Source: Pseudobdellovibrionaceae bacterium (GTDB taxonomy: Bacteria > Bdellovibrionota > Bdellovibrionia > Bdellovibrionales > Bdellovibrionaceae). Taken from it: a DNA stretch of 64,000 nt. Below, piece by piece: positions 3,720 through 64,000 of the stretch. Position 1 is the first letter of the stretch. The number at the start of each line of letters is the position of its first letter. Below the pieces are notes generated by a model that was not told where the DNA came from, ran no database searches, and worked only from the letters and a program-made list of their open reading frames with translations. The stretch spans positions 1,889 through 65,888 of the forward strand of contig JAKFYD010000011.1 in assembly GCA_021731025.1 (NCBI GenBank), written 5' to 3'. The position numbers were made by a program, and so were the translations under genes.

Positions 3720-3750
3720 AATTTGAGAAACCTGGGCTGACAACAACTGC

Positions 3751-5156: not shown

Positions 5157-5190
5157 TTACACTCAACAAGATTGAGTTTAATGAATTTTG

Positions 5191-5222: not shown

Positions 5223-5243
5223 AGAAGACACGTTAACGGATGC

Positions 5244-46885: not shown

Positions 46886-46942
46886 GCCAGTCTTGTTCTC
46901 CTTGGGACTTTAAGGAGCAAGGATATGGCCAGATCTGTGGTC

Positions 46943-47428: not shown

Positions 47429-47436
47429 TTTTTTCC

Positions 47437-48450: not shown

Positions 48451-50666
48451 TTTTTCTCCGTATTTTTGCCAAGCAAGGATAAACAAGATTGGATGATATC
48501 GTCTCGCGAAGGAAGTCCTGCAGCTGCGGCTACTCCCAGTGTAATAAAGCAATCGTGCGCGGCCAACACTTTGATGTTTGGGATCTTTGCGCTATTTTCA
48601 ACGATCATCGTAACAAGAGCTTCACTGAGAGAACCTGACTTTCGACATTCGTCGACGATCAGAATATTTTTATCGTGTTGAATTTCTTTCATCAGAGATT
48701 CAGTTGGTAAAGGCGAAATCCACCGCAGATCAATGATCTTGCAATTCACGCCGTGCTTTTCGCGCAGAATTTTTTCGGCTTGGCGGGAAAAATAATAACC
48801 ATTTCCATAGGTTAGAATGGTTAAATCTTTCCCCTGACCATGAACACCAAATTCACCGAAGGAAATTTCTTCTTCAGGTTGTGGATAAGCAGAACTCCAT
48901 TCTTTGTCGCCCTCTTGATGGAGATCCTTCGTCATGTAAAGAGCAATGGGCTCGACAAAGACAATCACGCGACCTTCTTCATAAGCCTTGCGCACGCAGG
49001 CTCTCATCATTTTTACAGCGTCAGCGCCATTAGATGGGACGGCGAGGATAACTCCGGGGATATCTCGAAAGATGGCCAAAGAATTATCATTGTGAAAGTG
49101 ACCACCGAAACCTTTTTGATAAGGCAATCCAGCGATGCGGATCACCATGGGATTCGTGAATTGGCCTTGAGAGAAAAAAGCCAAGGTTGCGGCTTCGCCA
49201 CGAATTTGATCTTCGGCATTGTGAACATAAGCTAAGAATTGAATTTCGGGAATGGGAAGAAAACCATTGTGACTTAAACCAATCGCTGTACCAAGAATAG
49301 ACTGTTCATCCAGCAAAGAATTGAAAACGCGTTTGGCGCCAAACTTGGAGTACAATCCTTCGGTCACATTGTAGACTCCGCCTTTTTGAGCAACGTCTTC
49401 ACCGAAGATCGCTGCATTTTTATAGCGCAATAAAATATCCGTGAGACCGTAGTTGATCAGTTTGGCCATATGTTGCGGAGTTTTCAAACGAGCGTACTCA
49501 CGATCAAAAGTTTTTTCGCGCAAATTTTCTTCAGGTAAATCGGGTGCTGTTTTCATTTGAGTGCAAGCCGTTACAGCGCTGCGGATGTCTTCGGGCTTCA
49601 AAAGCTTCGGTCGATGAATCACGTACTGACCCACATGCTGAATACGACTGCGCGTTTGTTCGTAGAGTTTTAAAATTTCTTCAGCGGAGAGAATGGAATT
49701 CTCGATCAACAAGCGGGCAGAATGTAACAGAGGATCATTGAACTCTAGCGCTTCGATTTTTGCGAGAGTGTGATAATTGAATTCCATATCCGAGCCGGCA
49801 TGTCCTAACAGGCGCACTGTTTCCATATGAAGGAACACAGGCCGACGTCTTTGACGAACGTACTCTTCGGCGCTTTTTGTTTGCACGTAGAGATCAATCA
49901 GATTTAAACCATCGCCTTTAAAGTATTTCAGGCCAGGTCGATTTGAAAAATTATTTTGAATCCATCCAGAGGGTGTTGAAACCGAAATGCCAATTCCATT
50001 GTCTTCGCAAATAAAAGCCAAAGGCATTCTGACATTTTGATAGGCGGTCCATGCGGCGGCATTGATTGCACCAAGGGATGTCGAGTGATTGGCTGAAGCA
50101 TCTCCAAAGGTGCAAAGAACGACACTGTCATCAGCCATCACGGAATTCAGTCCCAGGTCTTTTGCTTTTTGAATTGAAAGAGCTGCGCCCATGGCCTTCG
50201 GCAAATGAGAAGCAATTGTGCTGGTTTGTGGGGGGACCATTAAAGGAAGGCTGCCAAAAACTTTATGTCGCCCACCCGCAATAGGATCTTCGCTGGAGGC
50301 CACGAAAGAAAGCATGGTGTCGTAAATCGACGTCGATCCAGGAAGTTGCTTCGCCCGTTCCAGCATTAAAGCCCCACTGCGGTAATGCAGAAAAGCCATA
50401 TCGTCGAGACGAAAGACATTTCCAAAGACCGCGTTTCCTTCATGTCCCGAACTTCCAATCGTGTAAAAACAGAGATTGGAGTTCTTTAAAATGCGAGCGC
50501 GTAGATCCAAATGGCGACTGGCCACTTGGCTTTCAAATAATTGCACCAGGCGACTAGGACTTAAGCCTGAACCTTCTAAAGAAGTGGGGGTGCGGGCCGG
50601 GGGGAATTTTCCTGTTGAAACGAATTGAGTGAAATTCTGATCAACGACTTCAGCGCGATTATACAT
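48447..50666 (-). CDS. fused alpha/beta E1 component of a thiamine-diphosphate 2-oxoacid dehydrogenase
   Basis: 739 aa. ThDP motif 'FGDASANHS...ICEDNGIGIS' in the N-terminal half. The C-terminal half is transketolase-pyrimidine/E1-beta-like ('FGEDVAQKGGVYNVT', 'FNSLLDEQSILG'). Confidence 0.8.
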   Translation of the reverse strand: MYNRAEVVDQNFTQFVSTGKFPPARTPTSLEGSGLSPSRLVQLFESQVASRHLDLRARILKNSNLCFYTIGSSGHEGNAVFGNVFRLDDMAFLHYRSGALMLERAKQLPGSTSIYDTMLSFVASSEDPIAGGRHKVFGSLPLMVPPQTSTIASHLPKAMGAALSIQKAKDLGLNSVMADDSVVLCTFGDASANHSTSLGAINAAAWTAYQNVRMPLAFICEDNGIGISVSTPSGWIQNNFSNRPGLKYFKGDGLNLIDLYVQTKSAEEYVRQRRRPVFLHMETVRLLGHAGSDMEFNYHTLAKIEALEFNDPLLHSARLLIENSILSAEEILKLYEQTRSRIQHVGQYVIHRPKLLKPEDIRSAVTACTQMKTAPDLPEENLREKTFDREYARLKTPQHMAKLINYGLTDILLRYKNAAIFGEDVAQKGGVYNVTEGLYSKFGAKRVFNSLLDEQSILGTAIGLSHNGFLPIPEIQFLAYVHNAEDQIRGEAATLAFFSQGQFTNPMVIRIAGLPYQKGFGGHFHNDNSLAIFRDIPGVILAVPSNGADAVKMMRACVRKAYEEGRVIVFVEPIALYMTKDLHQEGDKEWSSAYPQPEEEISFGEFGVHGQGKDLTILTYGNGYYFSRQAEKILREKHGVNCKIIDLRWISPLPTESLMKEIQHDKNILIVDECRKSGSLSEALVTMIVENSAKIPNIKVLAAHDCFITLGVAAAAGLPSRDDIIQSCLSLLGKNTEKK

Positions 50667-50774
50667 AGCTCAACCTCTATTTTGAGGATCATCTTCGGCA
50701 ATAAATAACTCTTTGTCAGGATACCGTTTAAGGCCTATATTAGCACCTAAAGCTAAAAATTCCAGGGAGTATTT

Positions 50775-51947
50775 ATGGCCAGTTACGAATCTTTAAACTA
50801 CATGGAAGAGGACTCGCTCTTTACTGAAGACGAGCTCATGGTAAGAAAAACAGTCCGGGACTTTGTCACTGCCGAAGTCATGCCCACTCTTCAAGAGGCG
50901 AATCGCAAAGAAGAATTTCCTATGCACTTGATTCCTCGCTTTGCCGAAATGGGTTTACTGGGCTCGACGATTCAAGGTTACGATTGTCCAGGTCTGGGTC
51001 ATATAGCCTATGGTCTATTGATGCAGGAGCTTGAGCGGGCTGACTCTGGAATTCGCTCTTTCTGTTCCGTGCAAGGCGCCTTGGTGATGTATCCCATCTT
51101 TGCTTATGGTTCTGAAGAACAGAAAAAAAAGTATCTGCCGAAGTTAGCTAAAGGGGAATTGATTGGATGTTTTGGTCTGACTGAACCCGATGCGGGATCA
51201 AATCCTGGCGGCATGCTCACCCGCGCTGAAAAAGTAAAGGGCGGTTTTAAACTCAATGGAAATAAAATGTGGATCACGAACGGATGTATTTCTGACATCG
51301 CGGTTGTGTGGGCCAAATTGGATGGAGAAGTTCGTGGGTTCATCGTTGAAAAAGGAACAAAAGGTTTTTCAACGAGCACCATGAAAGGAAAATTTTCTCT
51401 GCGAGTGAGTGTCACTTCCGAGTTGCACATGCAAGACTGTGTTGTTCCCGAGGAGAATATGCTTCCTCACGGTGCGGGTCTAAGAGCTCCTTTGGGGTGT
51501 TTGACCCAAGCTCGATACGGAATTGCTTGGGGCGTGGTTGGCGCGGCGAATGCCTGTTACCACACGGCTCTGAACTACGCTAAAGATCGAGTGATCTTCG
51601 AAAAAAGTAAACCTCTTGCCGCCTATCAATTAGCTCAAGCAAAATTGGTGAAGATGGCTCAGGAAATTACCAAAGGCCAATTGCTGGCCATTCAAATGGG
51701 AAGATTGAAAGAGGCAGGACGAATTCAACCTCATCATGTTTCCCTGGGGAAAATGAACAACTGCCGTATGGCTTTAGATGTGGCCCGTGATGCTCGCGAT
51801 ATGTTGGGTGCCAATGGGATCATCGATGAATATCCTGTTATTCGTCATATGAACAATCTAGAGACTGTGAATACTTATGAAGGAACAGAAGATATTCACC
51901 GCTTAGTGGTGGGACAGCAGATCACTGGCATTCCAGCCTTCCGCTAA
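50775..51947 (+). CDS. gcdH: acyl-CoA dehydrogenase, glutaryl-CoA dehydrogenase-like
   Basis: 'GCFGLTEPDAGSNPG', 'GNKMWITNG', 'ARYGIAWGVVGAA', 'YEGTEDIHRLVVGQQITG'. 390 aa. Confidence 0.75.
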   Translation: MASYESLNYMEEDSLFTEDELMVRKTVRDFVTAEVMPTLQEANRKEEFPMHLIPRFAEMGLLGSTIQGYDCPGLGHIAYGLLMQELERADSGIRSFCSVQGALVMYPIFAYGSEEQKKKYLPKLAKGELIGCFGLTEPDAGSNPGGMLTRAEKVKGGFKLNGNKMWITNGCISDIAVVWAKLDGEVRGFIVEKGTKGFSTSTMKGKFSLRVSVTSELHMQDCVVPEENMLPHGAGLRAPLGCLTQARYGIAWGVVGAANACYHTALNYAKDRVIFEKSKPLAAYQLAQAKLVKMAQEITKGQLLAIQMGRLKEAGRIQPHHVSLGKMNNCRMALDVARDARDMLGANGIIDEYPVIRHMNNLETVNTYEGTEDIHRLVVGQQITGIPAFR

Positions 51948-51956: not shown

Positions 51957-53228
51957 TCACTGTGTGAGGCTCATGATTCTTTCAAAATTAGCTTTATTCA
52001 TGGGGAACCATAGATTTCCCATGTGTCCACCGTAAGGGTAGAGGACAAAGCGTTCGTGCATTGTATTCTCTAAGAATTCAATATCTGCAGGGGTAACCAA
52101 AAAATCATCTTTGTTCGTAAGAACGAAGATATTTTTATTATTTTTAAGGGTTTCAGCCAATGAAGTGAAATTCGCTTCATTAAGTGCGATTTCCATTTCT
52201 TCTCGTGTTGGAGTTTCTCGATTTGGTTTTAGAGAAGGCGCTAAAAAGCGTATGAAGTACTCGCGGAAACCAAACTGGCGAGCCTCTTTCATGCGCTCAT
52301 TGAATCTGTAAGGTAATGCTTTTTTCTTTAAAAATCCCAAGTCTTTAACTTGTTGGCTGGCAAAAATAACTTCGCTCAAATTTATGCGAAAGCTCTCGCC
52401 AATGAGCCAACGGCATTCCGGATGAGTCAGATGGAGCTTTTGTGCGGCACCTGCGACTAACTTAAGATCAAAACCTTCGCCCTGAATCTGACTCGCAACT
52501 GTAACCAGGGCACCCATAATATCAGATCTTCTTTCGGGAGTAATATTTTTTACTTCAGCGAAATAGTTATCCAGAAGCATCATGCTGGATTTCAAATTGA
52601 AAGGTGGATTGATAATAATAACTTTGGCGAAATTAAAAACTTTTTGCTTTTCATCTTCACGAGCTAAAAATCCTGAAAGTAATCCACCGTAAGAATAACC
52701 GGCCACAGAGATATCTGTGAAATTCAAGCCCTGTTGTTTTTTAAGAAAGGAAGTTACTTTTTTCATGAACTCATAATACTCGGGAGCATCACGCAATGGA
52801 TTGCCAGGTAAAGCACTTTCACTGACGCCTAAAACGTAGTGCCAAGAGATGGGGTCAGGCAAAGTGACAGCATGATATCCTTGAAGATAAAGCTGGCTCG
52901 CTAAAAGCAGTGCGCTTCCGCTAAGAGCTGTTCCACCTGTTCCTGAAATGATAAAGGCTAAGGGTGCTTTTTTGTTTTTATGTTCGAACAAAGCCAAGGG
53001 TACGGCATTTCGTTTTTCAAGTAAGGGAACGTTCCGGCGATCTTTGCGAACTTCAATTTTAAGAGTCTCGTAAGAAGCTAAAGGAGTATTAGCAGCAGAA
53101 GAAATTGTTGAGACGTAATGATCCTTGATCGGGAATGGGTATTCGCTTTCTGGGATAATTGTTGCCCAGGCCAAGTTGGTCGTTGTGAGAGCTATGAAAA
53201 CTTTTATTAAAAACAATGGTAATCGCAT
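51957..53228 (-). CDS. secreted alpha/beta-hydrolase (putative lipase/esterase)
   Basis: Signal peptide 'MRLPLFLIKVFIALTTTNLAWA' and nucleophile elbow 'VAGYSYGGLL'. The ORF opens at 53276; the later Met was chosen. Confidence 0.5.
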   Translation of the reverse strand: MRLPLFLIKVFIALTTTNLAWATIIPESEYPFPIKDHYVSTISSAANTPLASYETLKIEVRKDRRNVPLLEKRNAVPLALFEHKNKKAPLAFIISGTGGTALSGSALLLASQLYLQGYHAVTLPDPISWHYVLGVSESALPGNPLRDAPEYYEFMKKVTSFLKKQQGLNFTDISVAGYSYGGLLSGFLAREDEKQKVFNFAKVIIINPPFNLKSSMMLLDNYFAEVKNITPERRSDIMGALVTVASQIQGEGFDLKLVAGAAQKLHLTHPECRWLIGESFRINLSEVIFASQQVKDLGFLKKKALPYRFNERMKEARQFGFREYFIRFLAPSLKPNRETPTREEMEIALNEANFTSLAETLKNNKNIFVLTNKDDFLVTPADIEFLENTMHERFVLYPYGGHMGNLWFPMNKANFERIMSLTQ

Positions 53229-53412
53229 TTGAGTGGAATCCTTTTGGCCGGAATATAGCTCACAGAAAATTTCCACACAATGGCAATCTCGAGGACCCTA
53301 AGAATGTGGAAATATTTTTACAATTCAACTCGAGATGTGATGTAAAAATGAAAGAATTTTGTAGTACCAACTTGGAACCATGCTTTTTCCGAGAGGAAAA
53401 AAGAGGTATCTC

Positions 53413-53796
53413 TCATTTTTTTGAGGCTTTTTGGTAGTGTGTTTTTGTAATTACGAAACAGTAGATGATTGAAACCACCAGGGGCGCCGCTACGGTTTTG
53501 GCCAAATTTTGTGTGTGATTGATCCAGTGAATGAGGATCAGCAAGATCCCTGTATGACCAACGGTAAATAATACAGGCCACAAGTAAGGGATTGGCCATG
53601 AGCTTGTTCGCCGAGCAAAGAAGACTACGGCCAAGGACATATAGAGTGTCATAGCTCCGCTATAAACGGCTTGAACGGCAGCTGTTCGCAAAGCTTCGGT
53701 GAGATTGTCTTCATGATAGTTCACGTAAAAGGCCCATAGCCCCCACATAAGAGAGGCGCCTAAAACTGAAAAAGTGATCAGTGCTTTTGAACTCAT
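53413..53796 (-). CDS. small 4-TM membrane protein, unknown function
   Basis: 127 aa with four hydrophobic segments. No recognised motif. Confidence 0.4.
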   Translation of the reverse strand: MSSKALITFSVLGASLMWGLWAFYVNYHEDNLTEALRTAAVQAVYSGAMTLYMSLAVVFFARRTSSWPIPYLWPVLFTVGHTGILLILIHWINHTQNLAKTVAAPLVVSIIYCFVITKTHYQKASKK

Positions 53797-53869: not shown

Positions 53870-54790
53870 ATGACTCATTCCAATGTGCCTGCTGATGTTT
53901 TTGGAAGGTATTTTTTTATTTCTTTGGGTCTATTTCTTTCAGTCGTAACCATCGTGTTTCTGCTGATCAAAAAGAAAAAAGGAAATAGCCAACTCATCAA
54001 AGAAATTCTTATACGGATCTATTCTTGGTGGGCTATCAGTTTTATCTTTTTTGTGGCCTACAATTTTGATCGAGTTGGCTTCGCCGTTGTTTTTACTTTG
54101 ATAAGTTTGTTTGGCGTTCATGAAGTCTTTCGAATCCTTCGGCAAAGAATGAAATTCAGGAAAATTATTTACCTCATTTATTTTTTGATTCCTCTGCAAT
54201 ACTATTTGATTCTGAATGGCAGTGCCCATGCTTATTTAGCTTTTGTACCGATTGGTTCATTTATCATCTTGCCTTCATTCAGCATCTTCTTGCGTTCGTC
54301 AGAAAATTTCTTAAGTCAGGTTTCATCCATCCAGTGGTGTTTGATGATGACGATTTACTGTCTCAGTCATACGGTCATGCTTTCGAAATACAACAGTTCG
54401 GTGATTTTGTTGTTGTTTTTTCTGACTCAGTTGAATGACGTGGCTCAATTCACTTGGGGTAAAACTTTTGGTCGTCGAAAAATCATTCCCCATATGAGCC
54501 CGAACAAAACCTGGGAAGGACTTATCGGTGGAGCCCTCACTTTGGGAGTGGTCTCGGCCTTTTTAATGCCCATGGTTTTGCCGCTGTCTTATTTAGAAAG
54601 TTTTTTTGTGGGGCTATTTCTTTCGCCCCTGGGATTTTTTGGCGATGTTGTGTTGTCAGCCGTTAAAAGAGATTTTGGTGTGAAGGACTATGGCAGTTCT
54701 ATTCCTGGACATGGTGGTTTTATGGATCGCTTTGATAGTCTTACTTTTACGGCACCTGCTCTTTATTATTTTCTATTTTTAATCCTTTGA
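53870..54790 (+). CDS. phosphatidate cytidylyltransferase-family (CdsA-like) enzyme
   Basis: Family signature 'SAVKRDFGVKDYGSSIPGHGGFMDRFDS' near the C-terminus. Polytopic membrane protein. Confidence 0.85.
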   Translation: MTHSNVPADVFGRYFFISLGLFLSVVTIVFLLIKKKKGNSQLIKEILIRIYSWWAISFIFFVAYNFDRVGFAVVFTLISLFGVHEVFRILRQRMKFRKIIYLIYFLIPLQYYLILNGSAHAYLAFVPIGSFIILPSFSIFLRSSENFLSQVSSIQWCLMMTIYCLSHTVMLSKYNSSVILLLFFLTQLNDVAQFTWGKTFGRRKIIPHMSPNKTWEGLIGGALTLGVVSAFLMPMVLPLSYLESFFVGLFLSPLGFFGDVVLSAVKRDFGVKDYGSSIPGHGGFMDRFDSLTFTAPALYYFLFLIL

Positions 54791-55434
54791 TGGAGTGTAA
54801 AAAAATGAATGTTGTTCGTCGCCCCGTTAAATCCCGAGAGCAAGGTTGGTCAAAATCACTAGCGCAGAATCTTTACCGGATGGGTTTAAAGCCAAATTTT
54901 GTATCGGTGATGAGCTCTGTCTTTGCTGCGGGTGCGGGTTTCTGTATCTTTAAAAGTGGCCAGGGCTCGTTTTTTATTCTTCTTTCTTTGGTCTTTATTC
55001 AGATGAGATTGATCTGCAATCTCATCGATGGAATGTTGGCCATAGAGCATGGGCTTAAATCTAAAGTTGGTGAAATTTACAATGATCTTCCAGATCGCTT
55101 TTCTGACTTATTTATTATTGTTCCCTTAGGATATGCCATTGTCGAAAAAGCTTGGGCTCTGGAGCTGGCGTGGATTGCGGGAACTCTTGCCGTGTTAACG
55201 GCCTACGTGCGCATTTTGGGTGCGGTTGCGGGGGCTCCACAGTTTTTCATTGGGCCAATGGCAAAACAACATCGCATGGCTTTAATTAATTTAACGATGT
55301 TAGTGGCGTTAATTGAATACAATATGAGCTCTACCATCGTTCAATCATTTTTTTGGTGCTTAATCATTCTTGCTTTTGGTTCTTTAATAACTGTCGTGCG
55401 AAGGCTCAGAATCATCTTTAAAGCCCTCACCTAA
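54790..55434 (+). CDS. CDP-alcohol phosphatidyltransferase-family enzyme
   Basis: 'NLIDGMLAIEHGLKSKVGEIYNDLPDRFSD' matches the DG..A...G...D...D family motif, with Ile in place of the usual Arg. The ATG overlaps the upstream TGA (TGATG). Confidence 0.75.
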   Translation: MECKKMNVVRRPVKSREQGWSKSLAQNLYRMGLKPNFVSVMSSVFAAGAGFCIFKSGQGSFFILLSLVFIQMRLICNLIDGMLAIEHGLKSKVGEIYNDLPDRFSDLFIIVPLGYAIVEKAWALELAWIAGTLAVLTAYVRILGAVAGAPQFFIGPMAKQHRMALINLTMLVALIEYNMSSTIVQSFFWCLIILAFGSLITVVRRLRIIFKALT

Positions 55435-55437
55435 CTT

Positions 55438-56535
55438 TTATTCCTTTTCAAAAATATGAAATTTATAAACACCGGTGCCGTCAATTTGGTGTGCCCATGA
55501 TTCCTTTGTTGCCAATTGAGTCCAACCCTTGTGATCAATGGCAGTTGGCGCACGCATGAAAGAACGGATAACAACTCGGGAAGTTTTTTTTGTTTCAGGG
55601 TGAAGCTTCTGTAGAATCTGATTCGCAGCTTCTGTTGGCAAATACGAGATCGTGTCTGAAAGAGAGATGAACTGAAAAGGTTTGGTCGGTAAAATATCTA
55701 AAAGATTTCCAACATGATAGTGAATCTGGGTAGAAGATTTTTTACTTTCATGAAATATTTTGTCGTGGGCCTCTAAGGGAAGACCCTCTTCGTAGCGAAT
55801 TTCTCCAAGAAAAAGAATCTGCATAAAATAATTTTTTCGCACAAGTTGATTTTTGAAAATGCGTTCGAACTCTTCTTGAATAAATTGGTAAGGCGGGCGA
55901 TCTTCAGTTCGGTGATGAGCTTGCCCGCTAAAATGACCTTTGTAGAGATACTTATTAAAAACATACTCGCTAGCTAAAATTCTTAAAAATGATTTCCAAC
56001 GAAGGTGAGGCCAATGTTTTTCATAGAGGGAAATTTGTTCCCTTAAATTTTGCGCTTTGAAAAGAAACGAAAAATCACATTGAAGATAATCGCGGAAGAT
56101 AAGGCCAAGCTTTTGAAAGTGAGATTCCCAACGGCCCAACAAAATAAAACCTTGTTTTTCCCAGCCTTCCTTTCGGTCTTGCCAATAGGCTTTCGTTTCA
56201 GGTTTCAATTGAATCTTTTGAAAAATTTCCGAACGTGAATCACCAGCATCAGATCCGCCTTGAGTGGCGCCACGGTAGCCAAAGAAAAATAACCACTGTT
56301 GATAGCTCAATTGGCGCATGGCTTCGAATCTAAGCTCACAGAGGTGAATCTGTGCGGGACTCATGTCGATGATGTGCAGTTCGCGAGGATTTCGTGCGAT
56401 CAGAGGTAAACAGCGTGCCCCAGATCCAGCGATGCTAAATATGCAATCGGCTTGATTGGGAAGGAGTTCGTGTTCCACACGAGTGTCTTCGTTGGCCAGT
56501 GTGTAATTTAAATCTGAAAAATACTCTTGAGCCAT
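55438..56535 (-). CDS. BtaA-like (DUF3419) putative SAM-dependent 3-amino-3-carboxypropyl transferase
   Basis: 'YFSDLNYTLANEDTRVEHELL' and 'IFSIAGSGARCLPLIA' (SAM-binding-like). Start set at 'MAQEYF', with GGAGGAA SD, 1 nt after the upstream stop. Confidence 0.6.
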   Translation of the reverse strand: MAQEYFSDLNYTLANEDTRVEHELLPNQADCIFSIAGSGARCLPLIARNPRELHIIDMSPAQIHLCELRFEAMRQLSYQQWLFFFGYRGATQGGSDAGDSRSEIFQKIQLKPETKAYWQDRKEGWEKQGFILLGRWESHFQKLGLIFRDYLQCDFSFLFKAQNLREQISLYEKHWPHLRWKSFLRILASEYVFNKYLYKGHFSGQAHHRTEDRPPYQFIQEEFERIFKNQLVRKNYFMQILFLGEIRYEEGLPLEAHDKIFHESKKSSTQIHYHVGNLLDILPTKPFQFISLSDTISYLPTEAANQILQKLHPETKKTSRVVIRSFMRAPTAIDHKGWTQLATKESWAHQIDGTGVYKFHIFEKE

Positions 56536-56536
56536 A

Positions 56537-57625
56537 TTATTTTCCTCCTCTGAAAGATCCACTGTATTGGAATCTAAATCCAAACAAGGTTCCCCCGGTG
56601 TTTTGTTCAATAATCGATGCGTAATTAAAATTTTCGCCGTGATAATTTTGCAGCAACAGAGTTAAACCCCAGTTGCGCAGCCAGGTGTAAGTGTAAGTGG
56701 CGCTGTAAAAGACATTTGTATAATCTTTGTTAGAGAAATTCTGCCATTGGAACTCGTGGCGACCACGAGAATAAGTTGCAGATAAATATCCCACGAGCTG
56801 GCTGGAATCAGGTGAGGAAAGATTTTCGTTACTAAATCCTGTCACCTGAGGAGTGATGGTCCATTGATCCCAGAAAATATCTAATCCAAAAGTACTGAAT
56901 GCGGATCGACGGCTCAGAAGGGCATCGTTTTTTTGTTCATTAATTGTTCCACCAACTTCGATTTTTGGAACAAATTTTTCAAAAGCATAGTTGGCACTAA
57001 AGCCAAAAGTGTTTTGGCGAAGTGCGCGCGCGGCAACAAAGGAAGACTGTATGCCTCCCAAAGCCATTTTGATTCTCATTCCAGGATTCACGGCTTCTTC
57101 TTCGGCTATTTTTTCAAGAATGGGATAAGGTGCGGGGTAGGTATCCTGAGGAACCTCCCACATTGCAGCGAGATCCATCGACCATGTCGAACCAACAAAG
57201 GTAAAAACGGCACCGGTCGAATGAGCTAATTGAAATGGAAGAGGATCAATAAATAATCTTTCATAGCGGCGGGCGGTCCACACATCCAGCGAAGGGGTAA
57301 TCCAAGAGTCACTCCAGCGATTGGCTTGTCGTCCCAGTTTGAAGTAAATCGAATTCCCCGCATATTCTCCGTAGAGTTCTTGCAGATAGGCTGCGTTTTT
57401 CGAGCGCCGCCAAGTTTTCTGTTCTTCAGGGGCAAAATCAGCGTCCGCGAAACCATCTGCAAAAAATTTAAATTTTTGGGTCTGAAGGGAAAGATCTGTT
57501 TGCAGCAAAGTTCTGTTGAATGAAATTTCTTTGCCGCTGATAAGATCATAACGAGGGTTGATATTAAAGTCGATGGCCCATGCCGAATTCACTTGGACTA
57601 AAATCAGCAGGATCCAGGTTCGCAT
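56537..57625 (-). CDS. outer-membrane beta-barrel protein (unknown family)
   Basis: Signal peptide 'MRTWILLILVQVNSAWA'. Aromatic-rich alternating strands ('YSATYTYTWLRNWGLTLLLQNY', 'LFGFRFQYSG'). Abuts the LolA-like gene with no gap. Confidence 0.55.
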   Translation of the reverse strand: MRTWILLILVQVNSAWAIDFNINPRYDLISGKEISFNRTLLQTDLSLQTQKFKFFADGFADADFAPEEQKTWRRSKNAAYLQELYGEYAGNSIYFKLGRQANRWSDSWITPSLDVWTARRYERLFIDPLPFQLAHSTGAVFTFVGSTWSMDLAAMWEVPQDTYPAPYPILEKIAEEEAVNPGMRIKMALGGIQSSFVAARALRQNTFGFSANYAFEKFVPKIEVGGTINEQKNDALLSRRSAFSTFGLDIFWDQWTITPQVTGFSNENLSSPDSSQLVGYLSATYSRGRHEFQWQNFSNKDYTNVFYSATYTYTWLRNWGLTLLLQNYHGENFNYASIIEQNTGGTLFGFRFQYSGSFRGGK

Positions 57626-58315
57626 TTATTTGAGTGACTCCATATTTCTAACGCTGAAGAAAGAATCTTCAAAAGATTTTGGTGTCATACTGAGAATTTT
57701 AACCTGTGATTTTTTTTTATTTGTGTCTTCAATACGTATCAAGGTCGGCCGCACATCTCCGGCAATCTGTTTGTAATTTTCAAAGTAGGCTTTTTTCAAC
57801 AAAGTTTTTCCATTAAGCCCTAGGTATTCTGTGCGTAAAGGACGATTCGTTTTTTTATCAATCCATAGACGGATCCAAGAGTAAGTTAAATTTTCTTTGT
57901 TGGCTTTTAAGAGCAGCTGCGCCTCTTCGGGAGTTTCCTTCTCGAGTGTGGGGGTGTAGTCACCGTGCCAACGTGTTCGTGAAATATCCCCATTGGCAAC
58001 TTGACCTGACAGTTTTTGGGCCAAGGATAAGCGCATAGATCTTTTTAGGTTCGGGATATATGCTTGAAAGTCCCGGTCGAGCATCAGCATATTGCGTCCA
58101 CGGTCACGGGCTGGTGATTTGGTGACGATAATAGTTTTATCCTGACCCTTCATATAAACTTCAAATTCCATGGCATCACCATCGCCTTCAACCTCGACGT
58201 TCATCACGTAGGATTGTGCGGGATTTCTAATTTCATCAGCTTTTTTAAGAAGTGCTTCGGGATTTGTGGCTGCGTGCAGTGGCAAAGCGAACAACAGTAA
58301 AAAAACGAATTTCAT
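57626..58315 (-). CDS. LolA-like 'outer membrane lipoprotein-sorting' periplasmic protein
   Basis: Signal peptide. 'ALLKKADEIRNP...KSPARDRGRNMLMLDRDFQAYIPNLKRSMRLS' is typical of the LolA_like family found next to FtsX-type ABC exporters. Confidence 0.6.
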   Translation of the reverse strand: MKFVFLLLFALPLHAATNPEALLKKADEIRNPAQSYVMNVEVEGDGDAMEFEVYMKGQDKTIIVTKSPARDRGRNMLMLDRDFQAYIPNLKRSMRLSLAQKLSGQVANGDISRTRWHGDYTPTLEKETPEEAQLLLKANKENLTYSWIRLWIDKKTNRPLRTEYLGLNGKTLLKKAYFENYKQIAGDVRPTLIRIEDTNKKKSQVKILSMTPKSFEDSFFSVRNMESLK

Positions 58316-58353
58316 AATGACACCTTCCTGTTACCTTATATAAATTATAGAAT

Positions 58354-59028
58354 ATGGATTTACTTTATAAGTTAGAATCAATTCAGTACAGCTATGTTTG
58401 GAATCAACAGCAGATTTCTGTTCTAAAGGGCATTTCTTTAGACATACCCCGCGGGTCATTCACCTGTTTGGTGGGTCCGAGTGGTGTGGGAAAAACCACT
58501 CTGTTGAATTTAATGGGTGTCATTGAGAACCCGACCAAGGGCCGTTTGATTTTCTGTGATCAGTCGATTGCTGAATTGAATGAAAAAGAAAAAGAAAATA
58601 TCCGTTTAAAAAATATCGGTTTCGTTTTTCAAGCCTTCTATTTGATTCCCACGCTGACAGTGCTTGAAAACGCTTCTTACTTTCTTCCCTCATTGGGAAT
58701 GGACCGAAAAAAAGCGGATCAGTGGGCCAGCGAAATTTTAGACCTTTTAGGTTTAGCAGATCAGCGCCATAAAAAACCTCTCGAACTTTCAGGAGGTCAG
58801 CGTCAGCGGGTGGCGATCGCTCGTGCTATGGCTAAACGTCCAAAAGTTATTTTGGCTGATGAGCCAACAGCAAATTTGGATTCTGTGACTGCTGACAAAA
58901 CGATTGCGGCTTTTAAAGAATTGCAACGGGTGGAAAATACCAGTTTTATTTTTGCGACCCATGATTCTCATTTGGTGGGTTATGCAAAGAATGTTTTAAA
59001 AATGAAAGATGGATTGATTTATGAATGA
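58354..59028 (+). CDS. ABC transporter ATP-binding protein (LolD/MacB-type)
   Basis: Walker A 'GPSGVGKTT', signature 'LSGGQRQRVAIARA', Walker B 'ILADEPT'. Confidence 0.9.
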   Translation: MDLLYKLESIQYSYVWNQQQISVLKGISLDIPRGSFTCLVGPSGVGKTTLLNLMGVIENPTKGRLIFCDQSIAELNEKEKENIRLKNIGFVFQAFYLIPTLTVLENASYFLPSLGMDRKKADQWASEILDLLGLADQRHKKPLELSGGQRQRVAIARAMAKRPKVILADEPTANLDSVTADKTIAAFKELQRVENTSFIFATHDSHLVGYAKNVLKMKDGLIYE

Positions 59029-60226
59029 TCTTTTAAAACTCTCTTGGCGAAATCTTTTTCGTAATCCACGCCGAACATTGGCTAGTTTGATCACCGTGGG
59101 ACTTGGTGCTGCGGGCTTATTAATTTATCAAGGTTTTAACACGGGCATTATGAACCAGTATCGAGAAAATACAATTCACGGTCACTACGGCTATGGCCAG
59201 GTGTTTCCCAAAGGTTATCATGGAAAAGTTTTAGAAAAACCTTGGGAAGCATGGATCACTAATTGGACTGAGGTTGAAAAGCAATTGAAGTCAGTGTCTG
59301 CGATCAATGAAGTCTTTCCCCGGGTCACATTTTATTCTTTCTTAGTTAAAGGTGGAGTGACCTTAGGTGGAAAAGGCGATGGCATTATTCCTGAACGTGA
59401 GAATAAATTTTTTAATCAGCTGAACTTTATTGCGGGTGGAGATATTCAAGGTGATGATGAAGTGATTCTCGGAAAAGGTTTAGCAGAAAGTTTAGATGCT
59501 AAAGTCGGCGAAACGATTACTCTTTTATCTCAGACAATTAACGGACAATTGAATGGAGTTGATGCAAAAGTTGCTGGAGTTTTCCATATTGGAATCAAAA
59601 AAGTTGATGACACTTATTTCCGTTTAAATTTAAAAGCGGCCCAAGGTTTACTGAACACCGACCGCATCGAATCTTTTTCGCTGGATACGAAAGGGGTCGA
59701 ATACTGGGATGAAGTGGCCCAGGGTATTGTCGAAAAAAATCCTAATCTAGAGCCCATTCGATTTGAAATTTTGGATAAAGTCTACTACCAAAATTCCGTC
59801 GATTTTTTGGCCGCGCAATTTGCTTTTATTCGTTCGATCATTTTGCTGATTGTGGCTTTAGGAATTTTTAACACCATCGCAGTGGGATTGTTGGAAAGAG
59901 GAGGCGAGGTCGGAGCCTTGCGTGCGAACGGTGAAAGCCGGTCCCGTCTATTTAAGATTTTTATGTTTGAAAGTGCTTTCGTTGGTGTCCTTGGTGGAAT
60001 GTTGGGTGTGGTGATTGCTTTTATTATGTGGGGAATGTTGTCCAAAGGAATTCCCATGCCTCCGGGACCGGGGATCACTCGTCAGTATCTTATATTTCTT
60101 GAAATTAAACCTTCGCACTTGATACAGGCTTTACTCTTGCCGGCGATTGCGGCCGTTGTTTCAAGCTTGTGGCCTATCTATAAACTTTTAAGAAAAAGCA
60201 TTCCTGAATTATTACGAACGACTTGA
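59021..60226 (+). CDS. FtsX-family ABC permease (LolC/E- or MacB-like)
   Basis: N-terminal TM, ~230 aa periplasmic domain and a C-terminal 3-TM FtsX module ('ALGIFNTIAVGLLERGGEVGALRANGESR'). Overlaps the ATPase gene by 8 nt. Confidence 0.8.
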   Translation: MNDLLKLSWRNLFRNPRRTLASLITVGLGAAGLLIYQGFNTGIMNQYRENTIHGHYGYGQVFPKGYHGKVLEKPWEAWITNWTEVEKQLKSVSAINEVFPRVTFYSFLVKGGVTLGGKGDGIIPERENKFFNQLNFIAGGDIQGDDEVILGKGLAESLDAKVGETITLLSQTINGQLNGVDAKVAGVFHIGIKKVDDTYFRLNLKAAQGLLNTDRIESFSLDTKGVEYWDEVAQGIVEKNPNLEPIRFEILDKVYYQNSVDFLAAQFAFIRSIILLIVALGIFNTIAVGLLERGGEVGALRANGESRSRLFKIFMFESAFVGVLGGMLGVVIAFIMWGMLSKGIPMPPGPGITRQYLIFLEIKPSHLIQALLLPAIAAVVSSLWPIYKLLRKSIPELLRTT

Positions 60227-62350
60227 TCGACGGGATAAAGCTAACTCTCGAGTCAGTGCAATCTCGCGGTCAGTGAGTGTTCCCATATGACCTTGAATGC
60301 TAGCAAGTTTAACACCGTGTTTTTGAGAGAGCTTGTAAATTTCTTTTACCTTTGTCCATTCGATATCTCGACCCATGGTGAAGCTTTCATGCTTTTCTTC
60401 CAGAGCTAAAACAGTGGTTTCTGCAAGACAGGCGTAGACGGTATTGCCCGGCAAACCAATATCGCAGGTCAACTGATAGGGACCAGGAAGAACAAGCTCG
60501 CCCGATTCCATAATGATAACATCGGGGCGTTTCTTGGCATCTTCCTTTGTAAAATCTAAAGGTCGCGAGCAGTCGCAGACAACACAACCTGGTTTTAAGC
60601 GCATCACATCGATGATTTTTTGATCGAAGGCCGAGGTTGCGGTAACTAAGACATCAGCCATCGACGCAAACTCATTCGCATCGGTACAACAAATAATTTC
60701 GCAATGAGGAGCCATTTTTTGCAATTCGGCTTTTAACTCTTGGAGCTTTTCGAGGCGTGGCGAAACTAAAATCAATTTATTAAAAACTAAGCTCAATAGT
60801 TTTGCGGAAACTTTTCCGATCGAACCCGAAGCGCCAATCACCATGGCTGTGCCAATAGCTTTTCCTGTTTGAGAGTCCGTTTTAAGAAGGCGCATTTTCT
60901 GAACGACATCGTAGAGTCCCCACAATGTGGCTGAGGCGCTTAAACTATTTCCGGTGGTGACGGGCAATGGAGAATTTTTATTGATCGTCACACCAGAGTC
61001 GCCGACAACTTTGGTGTAGGCACCAAGACCAATAATCTGAGCCCCACGTGCAGCGGCATCGTTACAGCACTTTTGAATTTGGGCATAGGTGATTTCGGGA
61101 TCCATGGATTTTAAAACTTTGGGTGTTGACCATAAAGCATAAATAATTCCATTGACCTCTTTGCCTGTGGCTGGCGAAACGACATTTTTAACATGACCCA
61201 AGATGAGCGGGGGTAAACGGGAAATTGTTTTATCAACTTCATCGTTCCATTGCTTTGGAAGGGCACGAATCATTTGACCCACAACGGGAACTCTTTCGAA
61301 GTCCCGGTGGGATAAAGCGTGAACAACAAAGGCAAAATCAGGTGTCGTTTCACGAATGATGCGATTTTTAATTTTGTAAAAGGTGCGGGCGGCTTTGACC
61401 TGCATGGAATCTTTACGTGGTAAAGTGTATTTGCGCACGATAGACATGGTCTCTGGCGAAATTTTCAAAAAATCTTTCCACTCTTCAAAAGAGAGACTGG
61501 CTTCCATCTTATGTGCTAGCCGAAAAGCTGCTTCCAGGACGCTGTAGTTCATATAATGACTGAATTGGTAAGCACTGGGAAAAAGATTATGGATAGCTTT
61601 GAACTCATATCTTTTTAAATATTTTTCGATTCCAATATGATGAGACCAAACGATAAGCTCTTTATCTTTAAAAATTTTACTGACGTCATTGAAGTAAGCG
61701 ATGTGAGCCAAATCAGCTACAATGTAGCGAGAAGATTTTATTTGGGATGCCAGAACTTTTTGGGTCATCTCTTGAAGTGGGAGGTTCAGGTTGGAAGTAC
61801 CACCTTTGATTTTCTTCACCGTTGCAATATTTAAACCTGTTTTGGCCAAAGTCATTAAGCCCAAGAAGGGTTTTAAAACTAAGGGTATACCCAAAATAGA
61901 ATAGAGGTCTCCAAATGAAACTTGAGCCTCGGGTGTATTTCGAATGAGCTCTTCCAGCTCGGTGTTTAAAAGAACCGTTGGGAAAAAAAATCCGTCTTTG
62001 GCTACTAATTTTTTTGTTTCCAAGGCCGACATTAAATTTTTAATGTTTAGAATTTCTCTTAAGCCAGTTCCATCACAAAGAGGGACAGAAGAAGGTGTAT
62101 TCATAATTTCAAAATACTGACGATGAACAAAGCTTTGATTCCCAAGACAAATAGGTGGCGGCAAGGAGACCAGAGCAAAAGCATCCACTTCACTGCGCAA
62201 ATTTCCGATGAGGGTTTTGACGGCATCTACAGAATAATTAGCGCCGTAGCGTTGCACTTGAAAGGTGAACCCTTTGTACTGAAATTCATAGCTTGTATCC
62301 CAATGGGAATAACCAAAGCTAATTTCGGCGATGCGATAGGTATTTTTCAT
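60212..62350 (-). CDS. two-domain protein: unknown ~335 aa N-terminal domain fused to a long-chain acyl-ACP reductase (AAR)-like NAD(P)-binding domain
   Basis: The C-terminal half is colinear with cyanobacterial AAR as I recall it: 'FAFVVHALS', 'GLGAYTKV', 'TTGNSLSAS', 'VIGASGSIGK', 'VYACLAETTVLALEE' (Cys at nt 60428-60430) and 'FTMGRDIEW'. Start at ATG 62350 (GGAG upstream); the ORF opens at 62374. Confidence 0.6.
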   Translation of the reverse strand: MKNTYRIAEISFGYSHWDTSYEFQYKGFTFQVQRYGANYSVDAVKTLIGNLRSEVDAFALVSLPPPICLGNQSFVHRQYFEIMNTPSSVPLCDGTGLREILNIKNLMSALETKKLVAKDGFFFPTVLLNTELEELIRNTPEAQVSFGDLYSILGIPLVLKPFLGLMTLAKTGLNIATVKKIKGGTSNLNLPLQEMTQKVLASQIKSSRYIVADLAHIAYFNDVSKIFKDKELIVWSHHIGIEKYLKRYEFKAIHNLFPSAYQFSHYMNYSVLEAAFRLAHKMEASLSFEEWKDFLKISPETMSIVRKYTLPRKDSMQVKAARTFYKIKNRIIRETTPDFAFVVHALSHRDFERVPVVGQMIRALPKQWNDEVDKTISRLPPLILGHVKNVVSPATGKEVNGIIYALWSTPKVLKSMDPEITYAQIQKCCNDAAARGAQIIGLGAYTKVVGDSGVTINKNSPLPVTTGNSLSASATLWGLYDVVQKMRLLKTDSQTGKAIGTAMVIGASGSIGKVSAKLLSLVFNKLILVSPRLEKLQELKAELQKMAPHCEIICCTDANEFASMADVLVTATSAFDQKIIDVMRLKPGCVVCDCSRPLDFTKEDAKKRPDVIIMESGELVLPGPYQLTCDIGLPGNTVYACLAETTVLALEEKHESFTMGRDIEWTKVKEIYKLSQKHGVKLASIQGHMGTLTDREIALTRELALSRRSSRS

Positions 62351-63344
62351 ATCCACTCCAAAAAGCTTTTTCATATTCCATAAATTCAGGGCACCAGTTC
62401 TGGCCTAAAATCTTTCGCGTATCTTCACTGTTATATCGGGGAAGTTGCAGAGCATAGCGAAGCTGCTCTTCAGGAAAGCCTAAAGCATATTGACTTAACT
62501 TGGTCACAATCGCTTGGGGAATTTTACGAACAAGAACAAGTCGAGAATGACGAATTTGAAAGTGTCTTAAAGTTGAAAGATAGAGGTCTTCCACCTTAAG
62601 TCCTTCTTTGGGAACTATATGAAAGCTCTTGTATCCCTGTTCTGAAGATTCGATGGCCCATTTTGTTAAGTTCACTAAAGCTTCAGCGGCCTTGTCGACA
62701 GGAACGAGAGGCAAGTGCACATCGCGATTACCGGGAACGGGCAATGGGAGTTTCCAGGCCTCGATAAATTTTTTGAGTCGAGAAAAAACATCAGCTGTAT
62801 GATAAGGACCATCAATTCGAGAGATCTTTCCATTGGTGGAATCGCCAACTAAAATTCCTAAACGTAAATTGATTTTAAGACGCAATGGACCTAACCAATT
62901 TAAAATTTGTTGTTCAGCGAGAGCTTTGCTTTCCGCATAAGGATCGTGAAATTTGCGAGAAAAATCGATCTCGTAAGGATTAACTTCGGCGTGAGACAAA
63001 TTTGTTGCAGCAGCTATGGAGCTTGTATTCACAAAGACAGGAATTTTGAGTAAAGAAGCAATTCGTAAGGCGGTGCCTGTGCCAGTGACATTGTTCATGA
63101 GGACATCTTCACGTGAGGCCGACAGATCATAAAGGCCTGCAAGATGCAGAAAGGCATCGTAATTTTTTTCGGAAAGTTCACTTAAGTTTATTCCACCATC
63201 CCACTTTGTCAAATCTCCAGTGACGTCAGCCTTTGGTGAGCGAGAAATAACATCGATATCAGCCTCGTTATGAAACAACTCTTGAACGACTTTTCCTAAA
63301 AATCCGGTCCCGCCGGTCATAAGGATTTTGTAAGTTCTTTTCAT
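62319..63344 (-). CDS. extended SDR / NAD-dependent epimerase-dehydratase-type reductase (thioester-reductase-like)
   Basis: 'ILMTGGTGFLGKVV' Rossmann motif and 'YAESK' catalytic YxxxK. 341 aa. Confidence 0.75.
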   Translation of the reverse strand: MKRTYKILMTGGTGFLGKVVQELFHNEADIDVISRSPKADVTGDLTKWDGGINLSELSEKNYDAFLHLAGLYDLSASREDVLMNNVTGTGTALRIASLLKIPVFVNTSSIAAATNLSHAEVNPYEIDFSRKFHDPYAESKALAEQQILNWLGPLRLKINLRLGILVGDSTNGKISRIDGPYHTADVFSRLKKFIEAWKLPLPVPGNRDVHLPLVPVDKAAEALVNLTKWAIESSEQGYKSFHIVPKEGLKVEDLYLSTLRHFQIRHSRLVLVRKIPQAIVTKLSQYALGFPEEQLRYALQLPRYNSEDTRKILGQNWCPEFMEYEKAFWSGYEKYLSHRRN

Positions 63345-64000
63345 TCACGCACCATGATGGTTAAGGCTTGAGGAAGACAACGAATTGAAATTTCATCAGC
63401 TTCGCGAAATAAAATTTCGCCGTCGCCGAAGAAGGTGATTTTTCTTTGAGGGTTTTTTGAGCGCAATGTCATTTCTGGGACTTCGTACGATTTAACAATA
63501 TCACTCTCGGCGAGATTCCCTTGATAGACCTTTGCAACTTCCATCAACTGGGACAATCGTGTGGTGCTTTCGATAAGAAGCAAATTGATCAAACCATCAT
63601 TATTTGAAGTGTAAGGAGCCGTTAAAAAGTTTTTTCCCAAGTAGGGTTGGTTGTTGATCAGAATAAAGGGAGCAATGGTTGTTATTTTTTTTCCATCTTT
63701 GAATTCCAAATCAAGATGCCAGCCGCTTTGTTCCCAAACTCTCAGTGTCTCAAGCAACATCGCAATGTAAACAAATGATCCCAATTTTCTCACGATTCCG
63801 TAAGAAACCTGGGAAGCGATTTGTGCGAAGGAAGATCTATTTTGATCGGCTGATAAATTCTGCAGAAACGAACGAAGTTTGTTAGCTTTATCCGCGGTCT
63901 CTGCAGGAACTCCTAAGCCCCCGTTCGTGAGCATGTATTTTTTGGTAGTTCCTGAGGTGACCTCGATGATATCAATCTTTTTCTCCTTACCTTCCAGGAT
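63341..64000 (-). CDS. DAG-kinase/YegS/LCB5-family lipid kinase, C-terminal part (5' end beyond the window)
   Basis: The frame stays open to nt 64000 ('ILEGKEKKIDIIEVTSGTTKKYMLTNGGLGVPAETA...'). This matches the 'vD.g.vn..yF.n.agiGfda' region of DAGK-family accessory domains. 4 nt ATGA overlap with the SDR gene. Confidence 0.55.
   Translation of the reverse strand: MLEGKEKKIDIIEVTSGTTKKYMLTNGGLGVPAETADKANKLRSFLQNLSADQNRSSFAQIASQVSYGIVRKLGSFVYIAMLLETLRVWEQSGWHLDLEFKDGKKITTIAPFILINNQPYLGKNFLTAPYTSNNDGLINLLLIESTTRLSQLMEVAKVYQGNLAESDIVKSYEVPEMTLRSKNPQRKITFFGDGEILFREADEISIRCLPQALTIMVRE

Follow-up and report, generated by a model that had tools for sequence, protein, structure and literature searches.

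Bdellovibrio-like predators have unusual envelopes, and the routes by which Gram-negative bacteria export lipids other than lipoproteins are still poorly known. Described counterparts include the type VII ATP-binding cassette (ABC) lipid exporters, such as DevCA for the heterocyst glycolipid, and the LolA-like genes that occur in aryl-polyene and flexirubin clusters. A specialised lipid gene cluster with dedicated export is a kind already known. We analyzed a 64,000-nucleotide (nt) stretch of a Pseudobdellovibrionaceae genome (GCA_021731025.1, contig JAKFYD010000011.1, positions 1,889 to 65,888, forward strand), hereafter the window, whose right-hand end (53870-64000) had been described in an initial annotation as a candidate island for membrane-lipid synthesis and export. 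We found this cluster to be real, conserved and apparently undescribed, with lipid-type biosynthesis and export genes. The gene calls first made for it were right and the pathway partly right, and its boundaries had been drawn too narrowly.

On balance, we favor the reading that the window holds most of a conserved, uncharacterized Bdellovibrionota cluster that probably makes a specialized amphiphilic lipid and transports it to the cell envelope. If this is true, a phylum-wide lipid cluster with its own delivery to the outer membrane would offer a handle on how predators build their envelopes, and its transport module would be a candidate export route for non-lipoprotein lipids. The gene set is apparently new to the literature: as had been supposed at the outset, no characterized pathway came to light, and a literature search that covered few subscription-journal papers found no description of the cluster.

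According to open reading frame (ORF) calls, 53870-64000 contains 10 genes, overlapping or abutting and almost without non-coding DNA. The total of 11 given before was too high, and the list that accompanied it likewise sums to 10. Profile searches of the proteins against Pfam and NCBIfam returned the family names first assigned. Four of the genes make up the core:

60212-62350, minus strand: two-domain reductase of 712 amino acids (aa), with an alpha/beta N-terminal half (residues 1-338) and a C-terminal half (residues ~339-712) of the acyl-acyl carrier protein reductase (AAR)/PigE-N type
62319-63344, minus strand: extended short-chain dehydrogenase/reductase (SDR) of NAD_binding_4 (fatty-acyl/thioester reductase) type, 341 aa
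63341-64000, minus strand: YegS/DAGK-family lipid kinase, C-terminal 219 codons, running off the window edge (YegS_C 61 bits)
55438-56535, minus strand: DUF3419 protein of 365 aa (BtaA superfamily), putative 3-amino-3-carboxypropyl transferase dependent on S-adenosylmethionine (SAM)

To place the cluster among its relatives, we took the loci around reductase homologues from public genomes and scored them by tblastn, which gave 27 non-redundant Bdellovibrionota loci from Bdellovibrionales, Bacteriovoracales and Oligoflexales, some on contigs too short for every gene. The DUF3419 and kinase genes each adjoin the reductase gene in 25 of these loci, and the SDR gene lies directly upstream of it in 24. 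Kinase, SDR, reductase and DUF3419 are a conserved core, together in 24-25 of the 27 loci, which bears out the proposal of a conserved unit of lipid-type enzymes with a transporter. The ABC, FtsX and LolA-like genes adjoin the reductase gene in 13 loci each, and the gene for a 362-aa protein, found by the LolA-like gene, in 11. Apart from the window, a CdsA-like gene with a CDP-alcohol transferase gene does so in one (Bacteriovorax, L022). A co-occurrence of at least five of the named families within 15 kb in other genomes had been suggested as a check, and we observed this in 15 of the 27 loci, within spans of at most 11 kb. In B. bacteriovorus (L001), all eight genes share one strand; the window, L002 and L091 have the transporter in inverted orientation. 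That the linkage persists through such changes of order and strand argues for selection on it. Spt, bCerS and CerR-type genes are missing from every locus; we accordingly dropped a sphingolipid or ceramide-kinase reading, and the absence of Spt agrees with the earlier exclusion of canonical sphingolipid synthesis. In L091, a 291-aa ORF (12159-13034) with faint transposase-like matches (HTH_7/rve) was noticed between the FtsX and reductase genes.

The closest characterized relative of the reductase is the N-domain of PigE, which converts a thioester to an aldehyde (PMC8341465). In NCBIfam, the 712-aa protein scored 164 bits with the PigE N-domain and 56.4 bits with AcACP_reductase, the latter below the cut-off of the AAR equivalog TIGR04058 (449.7 bits). 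We then used an AlphaFold (AF2) model of the protein (pLDDT 86.6) for Foldseek comparison, in which residues ~339-712 matched AAR (6jzq/6jzy) and carmabin TAD (9e4s) with E ~1e-17 at best (6e-17 to 1e-13 against 6jzy/6jzq) and TM to target of 0.63-0.72. The motif YACLAET aligns with FACFAEA of AAR, which holds the catalytic Cys (C294), and this Cys is nearly invariant among 37 orthologues. The C-terminal half therefore resembles AAR, PigE-N and carmabin TAD in its fold, its GxSGxIG nucleotide motif and its catalytic Cys. Unlike these proteins, the reductase adds a 338-aa N-domain without a family. It also differs from AAR and PigE in having neither an aldehyde-deformylating oxygenase nor an aminotransferase as partner, but an SDR or an iron-type alcohol dehydrogenase (Fe-ADH).

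The protein had been called an AAR-like reductase fusion. This description suits its C-terminal half; residues 1-338 found no family match in profile searches. The N-domain is a rare one: 37 representatives turned up among 1.84 billion, and almost all are ~700-aa fusions. We considered that it might be a degenerate AAR duplicate, since AAR was its best Foldseek match, and dropped the idea at E 6e-4, TM 0.37 and rmsd ~10 Å. A profile comparison of the N- and C-domains by hhalign was likewise not significant (probability 0.2 %).

The SDR scored 63.5 bits with NAD_binding_4, 49.6 with Epimerase and 122 with PRK07201, and shows TGGTGFLG and YAESK motifs. Orthologues of the reductase labelled Bdellovibrionota or Bdellovibrio are 48-85 % identical (56 % for B. 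bacteriovorus). Outside this phylum, the two-domain architecture was found in Burkholderiales (including Inhella, Rhodoferax, Sulfuritalea and Hydrogenophaga), Endozoicomonas, a Desulfobacterales genome and Actinomycetota, which exposes a family of ~700-aa two-domain AAR-like reductases in several phyla. In each of the three foreign contexts examined, the neighbor is an alcohol-forming enzyme: Nocardioides has a NAD_binding_4 SDR, Inhella and Desulfobacterales have an Fe-ADH. The AAR fold with its catalytic Cys, the likeness to PigE and the alcohol-forming partner in each foreign context make conversion of a thioester to an aldehyde and then an alcohol, by the AAR-like domain and the SDR, the best-supported putative step of the pathway. 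The reduction first proposed for these two proteins is thus well supported. The exclusion of alkane synthesis also held, as aldehyde-deformylating oxygenase is absent from the 10 genes and from the 27 related loci. As for the foreign loci themselves, Inhella carries an Fe-ADH and one two-domain reductase, and Desulfobacterales HSG16 (L037 5597-12064) carries two tandem ~700-aa reductase paralogues after an Fe-ADH fused to an SCP2 lipid-binding domain. Fe-ADH and two-domain reductase are an uncharacterized enzyme pair spread over several phyla.

The kinase gene stays open up to base 64000, and its translated part corresponds to residues 112-330 of the L091 orthologue, which has 330 aa (78 % identity). 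Full-length orthologues bear DAGK_cat and YegS_C, in agreement with the earlier call of a DAGK-family lipid kinase running off the window. In the relatives L091/L092 (85 % identity by reductase) and L002/L003 (73 %), four genes precede the kinase gene in the same operon, and synteny with the window is otherwise alike, including the flanking acyl-CoA dehydrogenase and E1 dehydrogenase genes. We therefore predicted, from synteny with these relatives, that the cluster extends past 64000 with the same four genes. They encode a formyltransferase with an N-x-H...D motif; an alpha/beta-hydrolase fused to an AMP-ligase, 797 aa in all (351 bits with PRK09274, 204 with the OleC models); a UbiA-like protein with a DxxxDxxxD motif; and an 893-aa dikinase resembling phosphoenolpyruvate (PEP) synthase (NF004881 1197 against a cut-off of 883; PigC/RedH ~350-370 bits). 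The four genes adjoin the core in 13-17 of the 27 loci, with dikinase, UbiA-like and AMP-ligase genes in 14-17. They had been missed before, and they alter the likely chemistry.

Fused OleBC architecture is known in actinobacteria, and the fusion past the edge resembles OleBC and fatty acyl-AMP ligases in joining an N-terminal alpha/beta-hydrolase to an AMP-ligase. Unlike OleBC, the relatives' loci lack an OleA thiolase, the ligase scores below cut-off, and other lineages have a plain AMP-ligase with a GNAT protein.

Parts of this gene set recur far outside Bdellovibrionota. A plasmid search showed DUF3419 and UbiA-like genes to be neighbors on plasmids or chromids of Roseinatronobacter and Brevibacillus laterosporus, and the Brevibacillus UbiA-like protein, used as a query, gave 4022 matches. 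In Oscillatoria, Geobacter and Anaerolineae, the order is [3-hydroxy-3-methylglutaryl-CoA (HMG-CoA)-reductase-like]-UbiA-dikinase-DUF3419-[polytopic membrane protein]-GNAT-AMP-ligase. The cassette was thus found in Cyanobacteria, Geobacter, Chloroflexota, Brevibacillus and an alphaproteobacterial plasmid (Roseinatronobacter), that is, in at least five other phyla. Only its DUF3419 gene is visible in the window; in the 85 % and 73 % relatives, the other four come after the kinase gene in the numbering of the window. The cassette has been kept from Cyanobacteria to Firmicutes, and our literature search, with the coverage stated above, found neither a description of this UbiA/dikinase/DUF3419/acyltransferase/AMP-ligase set nor a published function for it.

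HMG-CoA reductase takes a thioester to an alcohol in one protein. An HMG-CoA-reductase-like gene is present in the Brevibacillus, Geobacter and Roseinatronobacter cassettes; it is absent in Bdellovibrionota, where the kinase-SDR-reductase triad is present instead. We infer that the triad and the HMG-CoA-reductase-like protein may be non-homologous replacements of one function, which would support the order acid, thioester, alcohol. Within Bdellovibrionota, L012, L016, L022, L024 and L028 have the version with GNAT and a plain ligase, and the lineage of the window has the version with formyltransferase and hydrolase-ligase.

The polytopic membrane protein of the cassette has 439-456 aa and the motif LTLADAxAALVGxRYG...KSxEGS (L093 8464-9783, L094 7187-8506, L097 14675-16045). 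It may be a membrane kinase or a cytidylyltransferase. We do not claim kinship with CTP_transf_1 or phytol kinases, as the hhalign motif alignment gave E 0.11 and Pfam gave no match. In Brevibacillus laterosporus (NZ_CP011076, L094 1483-2436 and 15767-20009), an ETX/MTX2 pore-forming toxin, two permeases of the siderophore type (FecCD) and an ABC exporter flank the cassette.

The DUF3419 protein had been read as a BtaA-like transferase. Its family was confirmed (PF11899, 202.9 bits, residues 3-364), and its closeness to BtaA was not: with the canonical Chondrinema btaA product, whose gene lies beside a btaB-like methyltransferase gene, the likeness is at family level (23 % identity, E 2e-16). 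The NCBIfam set used holds no BtaA model, and the btaA control likewise found no match there. "BtaA-like" is a statement on the likely chemistry, SAM-dependent aminocarboxypropyl transfer, and not on membership. Like BtaA of the BtaA/BtaB route to diacylglyceryl trimethylhomoserine (DGTS), the protein matches DUF3419 over its full length, has a SAM-binding GxGxG motif and likely transfers an aminocarboxypropyl group to a lipid hydroxyl. In contrast to that route, its cluster partners are UbiA-like, dikinase, AMP-ligase and formyltransferase or GNAT proteins, none of them from DGTS synthesis. A family search of the window cluster and of the Bdellovibrionaceae loci found no BtaB or other methyltransferase, in agreement with the earlier exclusion of canonical DGTS synthesis. 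The closest plasmid homologues (Deefgea, Xylella) belong to small-molecule clusters that also contain SAM decarboxylase and redox enzymes. In L002 (16923-18737), an MbnB/TglH-family (DUF692) gene, an HvfC_N gene and an 89-aa ORF come straight after the DUF3419 gene; this group, which is not in the window, looks like a small set of the type that makes ribosomally synthesized and post-translationally modified peptides.

The transport module consists of four genes:

56537-57625, minus strand: secreted 362-aa protein, putative outer-membrane beta-barrel, with a signal peptide ending ...SAWA
57626-58315, minus strand: LolA_like/TP_0789-like periplasmic carrier, 229 aa, with a signal peptide and no lipobox Cys (PF17131 120.8 bits)
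58354-59028, plus strand: ABC ATPase of LolD/MacB/DevA type, 224 aa (ABC_tran 121.7 bits)
59021-60226, plus strand: type VII (MacB/LolC-like) ABC permease with a periplasmic domain, 401 aa (FtsX 67 bits, MacB_PCD 34)

Pfam confirmed the ABC/FtsX and LolA-like families named before. The lipoprotein-sorting equivalogs did not reach their cut-offs (LolD TIGR02211 206.7 against 307.75; lolCE TIGR02212 93.3 against 362.45), the carrier scored 17 bits with the NCBIfam LolA1/LolA3 models (cut-offs 83-100), and the ATPase scored 178 bits with the DevA model. The module resembles LolCDE-LolA and type VII exporters in combining a MacB/LolC-type permease, a LolD-like ATPase and a LolA-superfamily carrier, here inside a lipid biosynthetic cluster. 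It has a single permease gene, where lipoprotein-sorting systems have two subunits (LolC and LolE) or a LolF homodimer, and its carrier belongs to PF17131 (TP_0789-like) and not to LolA; unlike both systems, it has the unclassified secreted 362-aa partner in place of LolB, a membrane fusion protein (MFP) or TolC. The 362-aa protein has no lipobox, and no significant Pfam, NCBIfam or PDB sequence match was found, even with a nine-sequence profile. Its Bdellovibrio orthologues terminate in ...LTGNLAF, with sub-threshold matches to Alginate_exp and OMP_b-brl, and it is a probable outer-membrane beta-barrel. From family and linkage, we suggest that the module is a Lol-like path for a hydrophobic cargo other than lipoproteins.

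Taking these families and their linkage into account, we propose the following scheme. An acid would be activated, probably by the OleC-like AMP-ligase encoded just past the window edge in close relatives. The AAR/PigE-type C-domain of the 712-aa protein would reduce the acyl thioester to an aldehyde, and the NAD_binding_4 SDR would take the aldehyde to an alcohol. This alcohol may be phosphorylated by the YegS/DAGK-type kinase, and perhaps again by the PEP-synthase/PigC-like dikinase, to give a substrate for the UbiA-like transferase. DUF3419 would add a 3-amino-3-carboxypropyl (homoserine-type) group from SAM, and the amine may then be formylated by the formyltransferase in the lineage of the window or acylated by GNAT in others. 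We leave the phosphorylation, UbiA and DUF3419 steps, all drawn from families and linkage, unordered. The product would reach the outer membrane via the MacB/LolC-type ABC transporter, the LolA-like carrier and the secreted, probably beta-barrel protein. In its most specific form, the scheme would describe a lipid class new to the literature: an alcohol made from a carboxylic acid is mono- and diphosphorylated and serves as alkyl donor for UbiA, which forms an ether or C-alkyl link to an N-formyl or N-acyl homoserine-type head, giving a phosphorus-poor aminolipid with its own Lol-like outer-membrane route in Bdellovibrionota. We regard this product as a speculative and rather improbable one.

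Several points weigh against a specialized envelope lipid. Every step and the product are predicted from gene content, and the model includes four genes from beyond the window, placed there by synteny with the 85 % and 73 % relatives alone. UbiA enzymes normally need allylic diphosphates, which makes a reduced fatty alcohol a chemically uncertain substrate; an allylic 2-alkenol from a 2-enoyl thioester would be easier for this step. The model does not account for the reductase N-domain, for the 362-aa protein or for what the kinase does. Only about half of the loci have the transporter module beside the core, and the families that this module matches best are those of lipoprotein sorting. Moreover, the cassette also occurs in the Gram-positive Brevibacillus and on plasmids, by P450 and siderophore-type transporter genes, and for these cassettes a secreted metabolite fits as well as a membrane lipid.

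One further pair of genes bears on the pathway first proposed:

53870-54790, plus strand: YnbB-like CdsA paralogue (CTP_transf_1, Pfam 202 bits), 306 aa, accessory
54787-55434, plus strand: YnbA-like small CDP-alcohol phosphatidyltransferase, 209-215 aa depending on the start codon, accessory

YnbB is a CdsA paralogue linked to synthesis of the glycolipid MPIase, and we know of no substrate for YnbA even in E. coli. The CdsA-like protein is 39 % identical to E. coli YnbB over its full length (6e-63). With E. coli CdsA, BLASTP aligned the C-terminal 136 aa only (88 bits), and the CdsA equivalog NF008635 likewise matched the C-terminal half only (87.5 against a cut-off of 385). This pattern, full-length to YnbB and C-terminal to CdsA, is the one described for YnbB, which is non-essential in E. 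coli and cannot replace CdsA (PMC6362211). No second cdsA copy was found within the 64-kb window. The transferase scored 18 bits with Pfam CDP-OH_P_transf, below cut-off, and in NCBIfam 75.8 bits (E 4e-21) with archaetidylinositol-phosphate synthase and 50.5 with phosphatidylinositol-phosphate synthase, both also below cut-off; it is 26 % identical to E. coli YnbA (1e-9). Self aside, its best homologues are ~50 % identical, the named ones being from Planctomycetota, Verrucomicrobiota, Binatia and Gammaproteobacteria. The pair resembles E. coli ynbABCD in that YnbB- and YnbA-type genes are translationally coupled, and a YnbC-like hydrolase-methyltransferase joins them in L022. It differs in that the order is inverted, the window has neither ynbC nor ynbD (phosphatase), and the pair stands beside an unrelated lipid cluster.

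The pair is missing from the syntenic spot in L091 and L002. We interpret it, from these comparisons, as a ynbB/ynbA-like accessory inserted in the lineage of the window and not a core step; it looks horizontally acquired and may add a phospho-head-group variant. In Bacteriovorax L022, DUF3419 has YnbB-, YnbC- and YnbA-like genes, P450s and an O-methyltransferase as immediate neighbors. In L091, the spot of the pair, a variable region between the acyl-CoA dehydrogenase and DUF3419 genes, holds a PAP2 lipid phosphatase (19366-20079). Given these two loci, lipid-phosphate head-group genes are recurrent guests at the locus and not core members. The closest kin of the window's transferase lies in a Planctomycetaceae locus (L086 8001-10248), in a triad of CDP-OH transferase, PlsC-like acyltransferase and CdsA-like gene that looks like a compact, mobile-looking phospholipid module.

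Among the other explanations, the strongest is that the cluster makes a secreted specialized metabolite, such as a lipopeptide-like surfactant, a metallophore or a predation factor, exported by a MacB-type pump. The plasmid and chromid cassettes of Roseinatronobacter and Brevibacillus, by P450, GNAT, two FecCD permeases and an ABC exporter, point this way, as do the small-molecule clusters that hold the nearest plasmid DUF3419 homologues (Deefgea, Xylella), the P450s flanking the Bacteriovorax version, and the fact that dikinase and reductase match the prodigiosin enzymes PigC and PigE best among characterized proteins. Still, we hold it unlikely. The core spans three Bdellovibrionota orders, a breadth that suits a physiological envelope component better than a strain-specific product; an enzyme of a lipid-kinase family, a LolA-like carrier for hydrophobic cargo and a putative outer-membrane protein are linked to it; it has no MFP/TolC-type efflux partner; and the partner enzyme in Desulfobacterales is fused to a lipid-binding SCP2 domain. 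The enzymes could also run in the oxidative direction, from alcohol through aldehyde to acyl thioester, in salvage or catabolism of prey-derived or environmental lipids. The reductase does pair with Fe-ADH in Burkholderiales and Desulfobacterales, as in AdhE-like oxidation, the left flank is catabolic (acyl-CoA dehydrogenase, E1 dehydrogenase, DUF4442 thioesterase-like and PLD-like genes) and a secreted hydrolase-like gene adjoins. Against this, the cluster has enzymes of anabolic types (DUF3419 transferase, formyltransferase or GNAT, UbiA-like protein, two kinases), its transporter belongs to an exporter class (type VII ABC), and the cassette is present in non-predatory phototrophs and anaerobes, which leaves salvage improbable.

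The initial annotation had proposed a linear route of reduction, kinase, CMP activation, head-group transfer, SAM modification and export. Its families are all present and translationally coupled, and the L022 and L091 loci show lipid-phosphate genes by the core or at the same variable spot. The third and fourth of its six steps depend on the CdsA-like/CDP-OH pair, which occurs in 1 of 27 related loci, does not occupy the syntenic position in either the 85 % or the 73 % relative and looks horizontally acquired. The six-step route is for this reason unsupported; it also omits the four conserved genes past the edge, and as written we consider it very improbable. Least credence goes to the idea that there is no single system, with housekeeping phospholipid synthesis (cdsA/pgsA-like), lipoprotein sorting (lolCDE/lolA) and unrelated dehydrogenases merely side by side. 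It would account for LolD and LolC/E being the best NCBIfam names for the transporter genes, for modules that are not all adjacent in every lineage, and for promoter and terminator scans that were nowhere above chance. It fits poorly with the equivalog scores (LolD 207 against 308, lolCE 93 against 362, CdsA 87.5 against 385, no LolA model matched), with one permease gene where two would be expected, with adjacency in at least 13 loci despite inversions, and with a CdsA-like protein of the YnbB type, which is no substitute for CdsA in E. coli (PMC6362211).

The tight packing and translational coupling claimed before were confirmed at the junctions. On the plus strand, the CdsA-like and CDP-OH genes overlap at TGATG, and the CDP-OH gene converges on DUF3419 (minus) with a 3-nt gap. 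The 362-aa ORF and DUF3419 are separated by 1 nt, with GGAGG 9 nt 5' of the ATG, and the LolA-like gene meets the 362-aa ORF at TAAATG, a gap of 0. The ABC and FtsX genes overlap by 8 nt, and FtsX (plus) converges on the 712-aa reductase gene (minus) with a 15-nt overlap. The SDR and reductase genes overlap by 32 nt, the reductase start being taken as the ATG at 62350, as in database orthologues, and the kinase and SDR genes overlap at ATGA. Promoter and terminator scans gave nothing above shuffled controls to define operons. Between the divergent LolA-like and ABC starts there are 38 bp (58316-58353), with a promoter-like ATGACA-18-TAAATT on the plus strand; this leaves very little room for two divergent promoters.

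The base composition of the window is even, and 3365-5319 carries tRNA genes in the order Thr(tgt)-Tyr-Gly-Thr(ggt), with Trp ~1.4 kb further, an arrangement that we take to be usual around tuf/secE-nusG. Together, the tRNA group at 3.3-5.3 kb and the even composition suggest that the window is ordinary (core) chromosome and not an obvious foreign island. Genes of acyl and lipid metabolism lie to the left of the cluster (44861-51947). They encode a PLD-like protein of 674 aa, a thioesterase-like (DUF4442) protein, a fused E1 alpha/beta dehydrogenase of 739 aa and an acyl-CoA dehydrogenase; both dehydrogenase genes are syntenic in L091, the 85 % relative. We asked whether the PLD-like gene (44861-46885) is kin to the PLDc_2 gene beside the Geobacter cassette and rejected this, as there is no real similarity. 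One gene nearer to the cluster is a possible accessory:

51957-53276, minus strand: secreted alpha/beta-hydrolase-like protein, 439 aa, with a GYSYG motif and weak Pfam hydrolase matches (E 2e-3 to 1e-1)

A 66 % identical orthologue stands at the same place by DUF3419 in L091/L092, and none was found in the other loci. Between this gene and the ynbB-like gene, 53413-53796 (minus strand) encodes a 127-aa membrane protein with four predicted helices and no homologue in the fetched loci; it seems to have come in with the ynbBA-like insertion.

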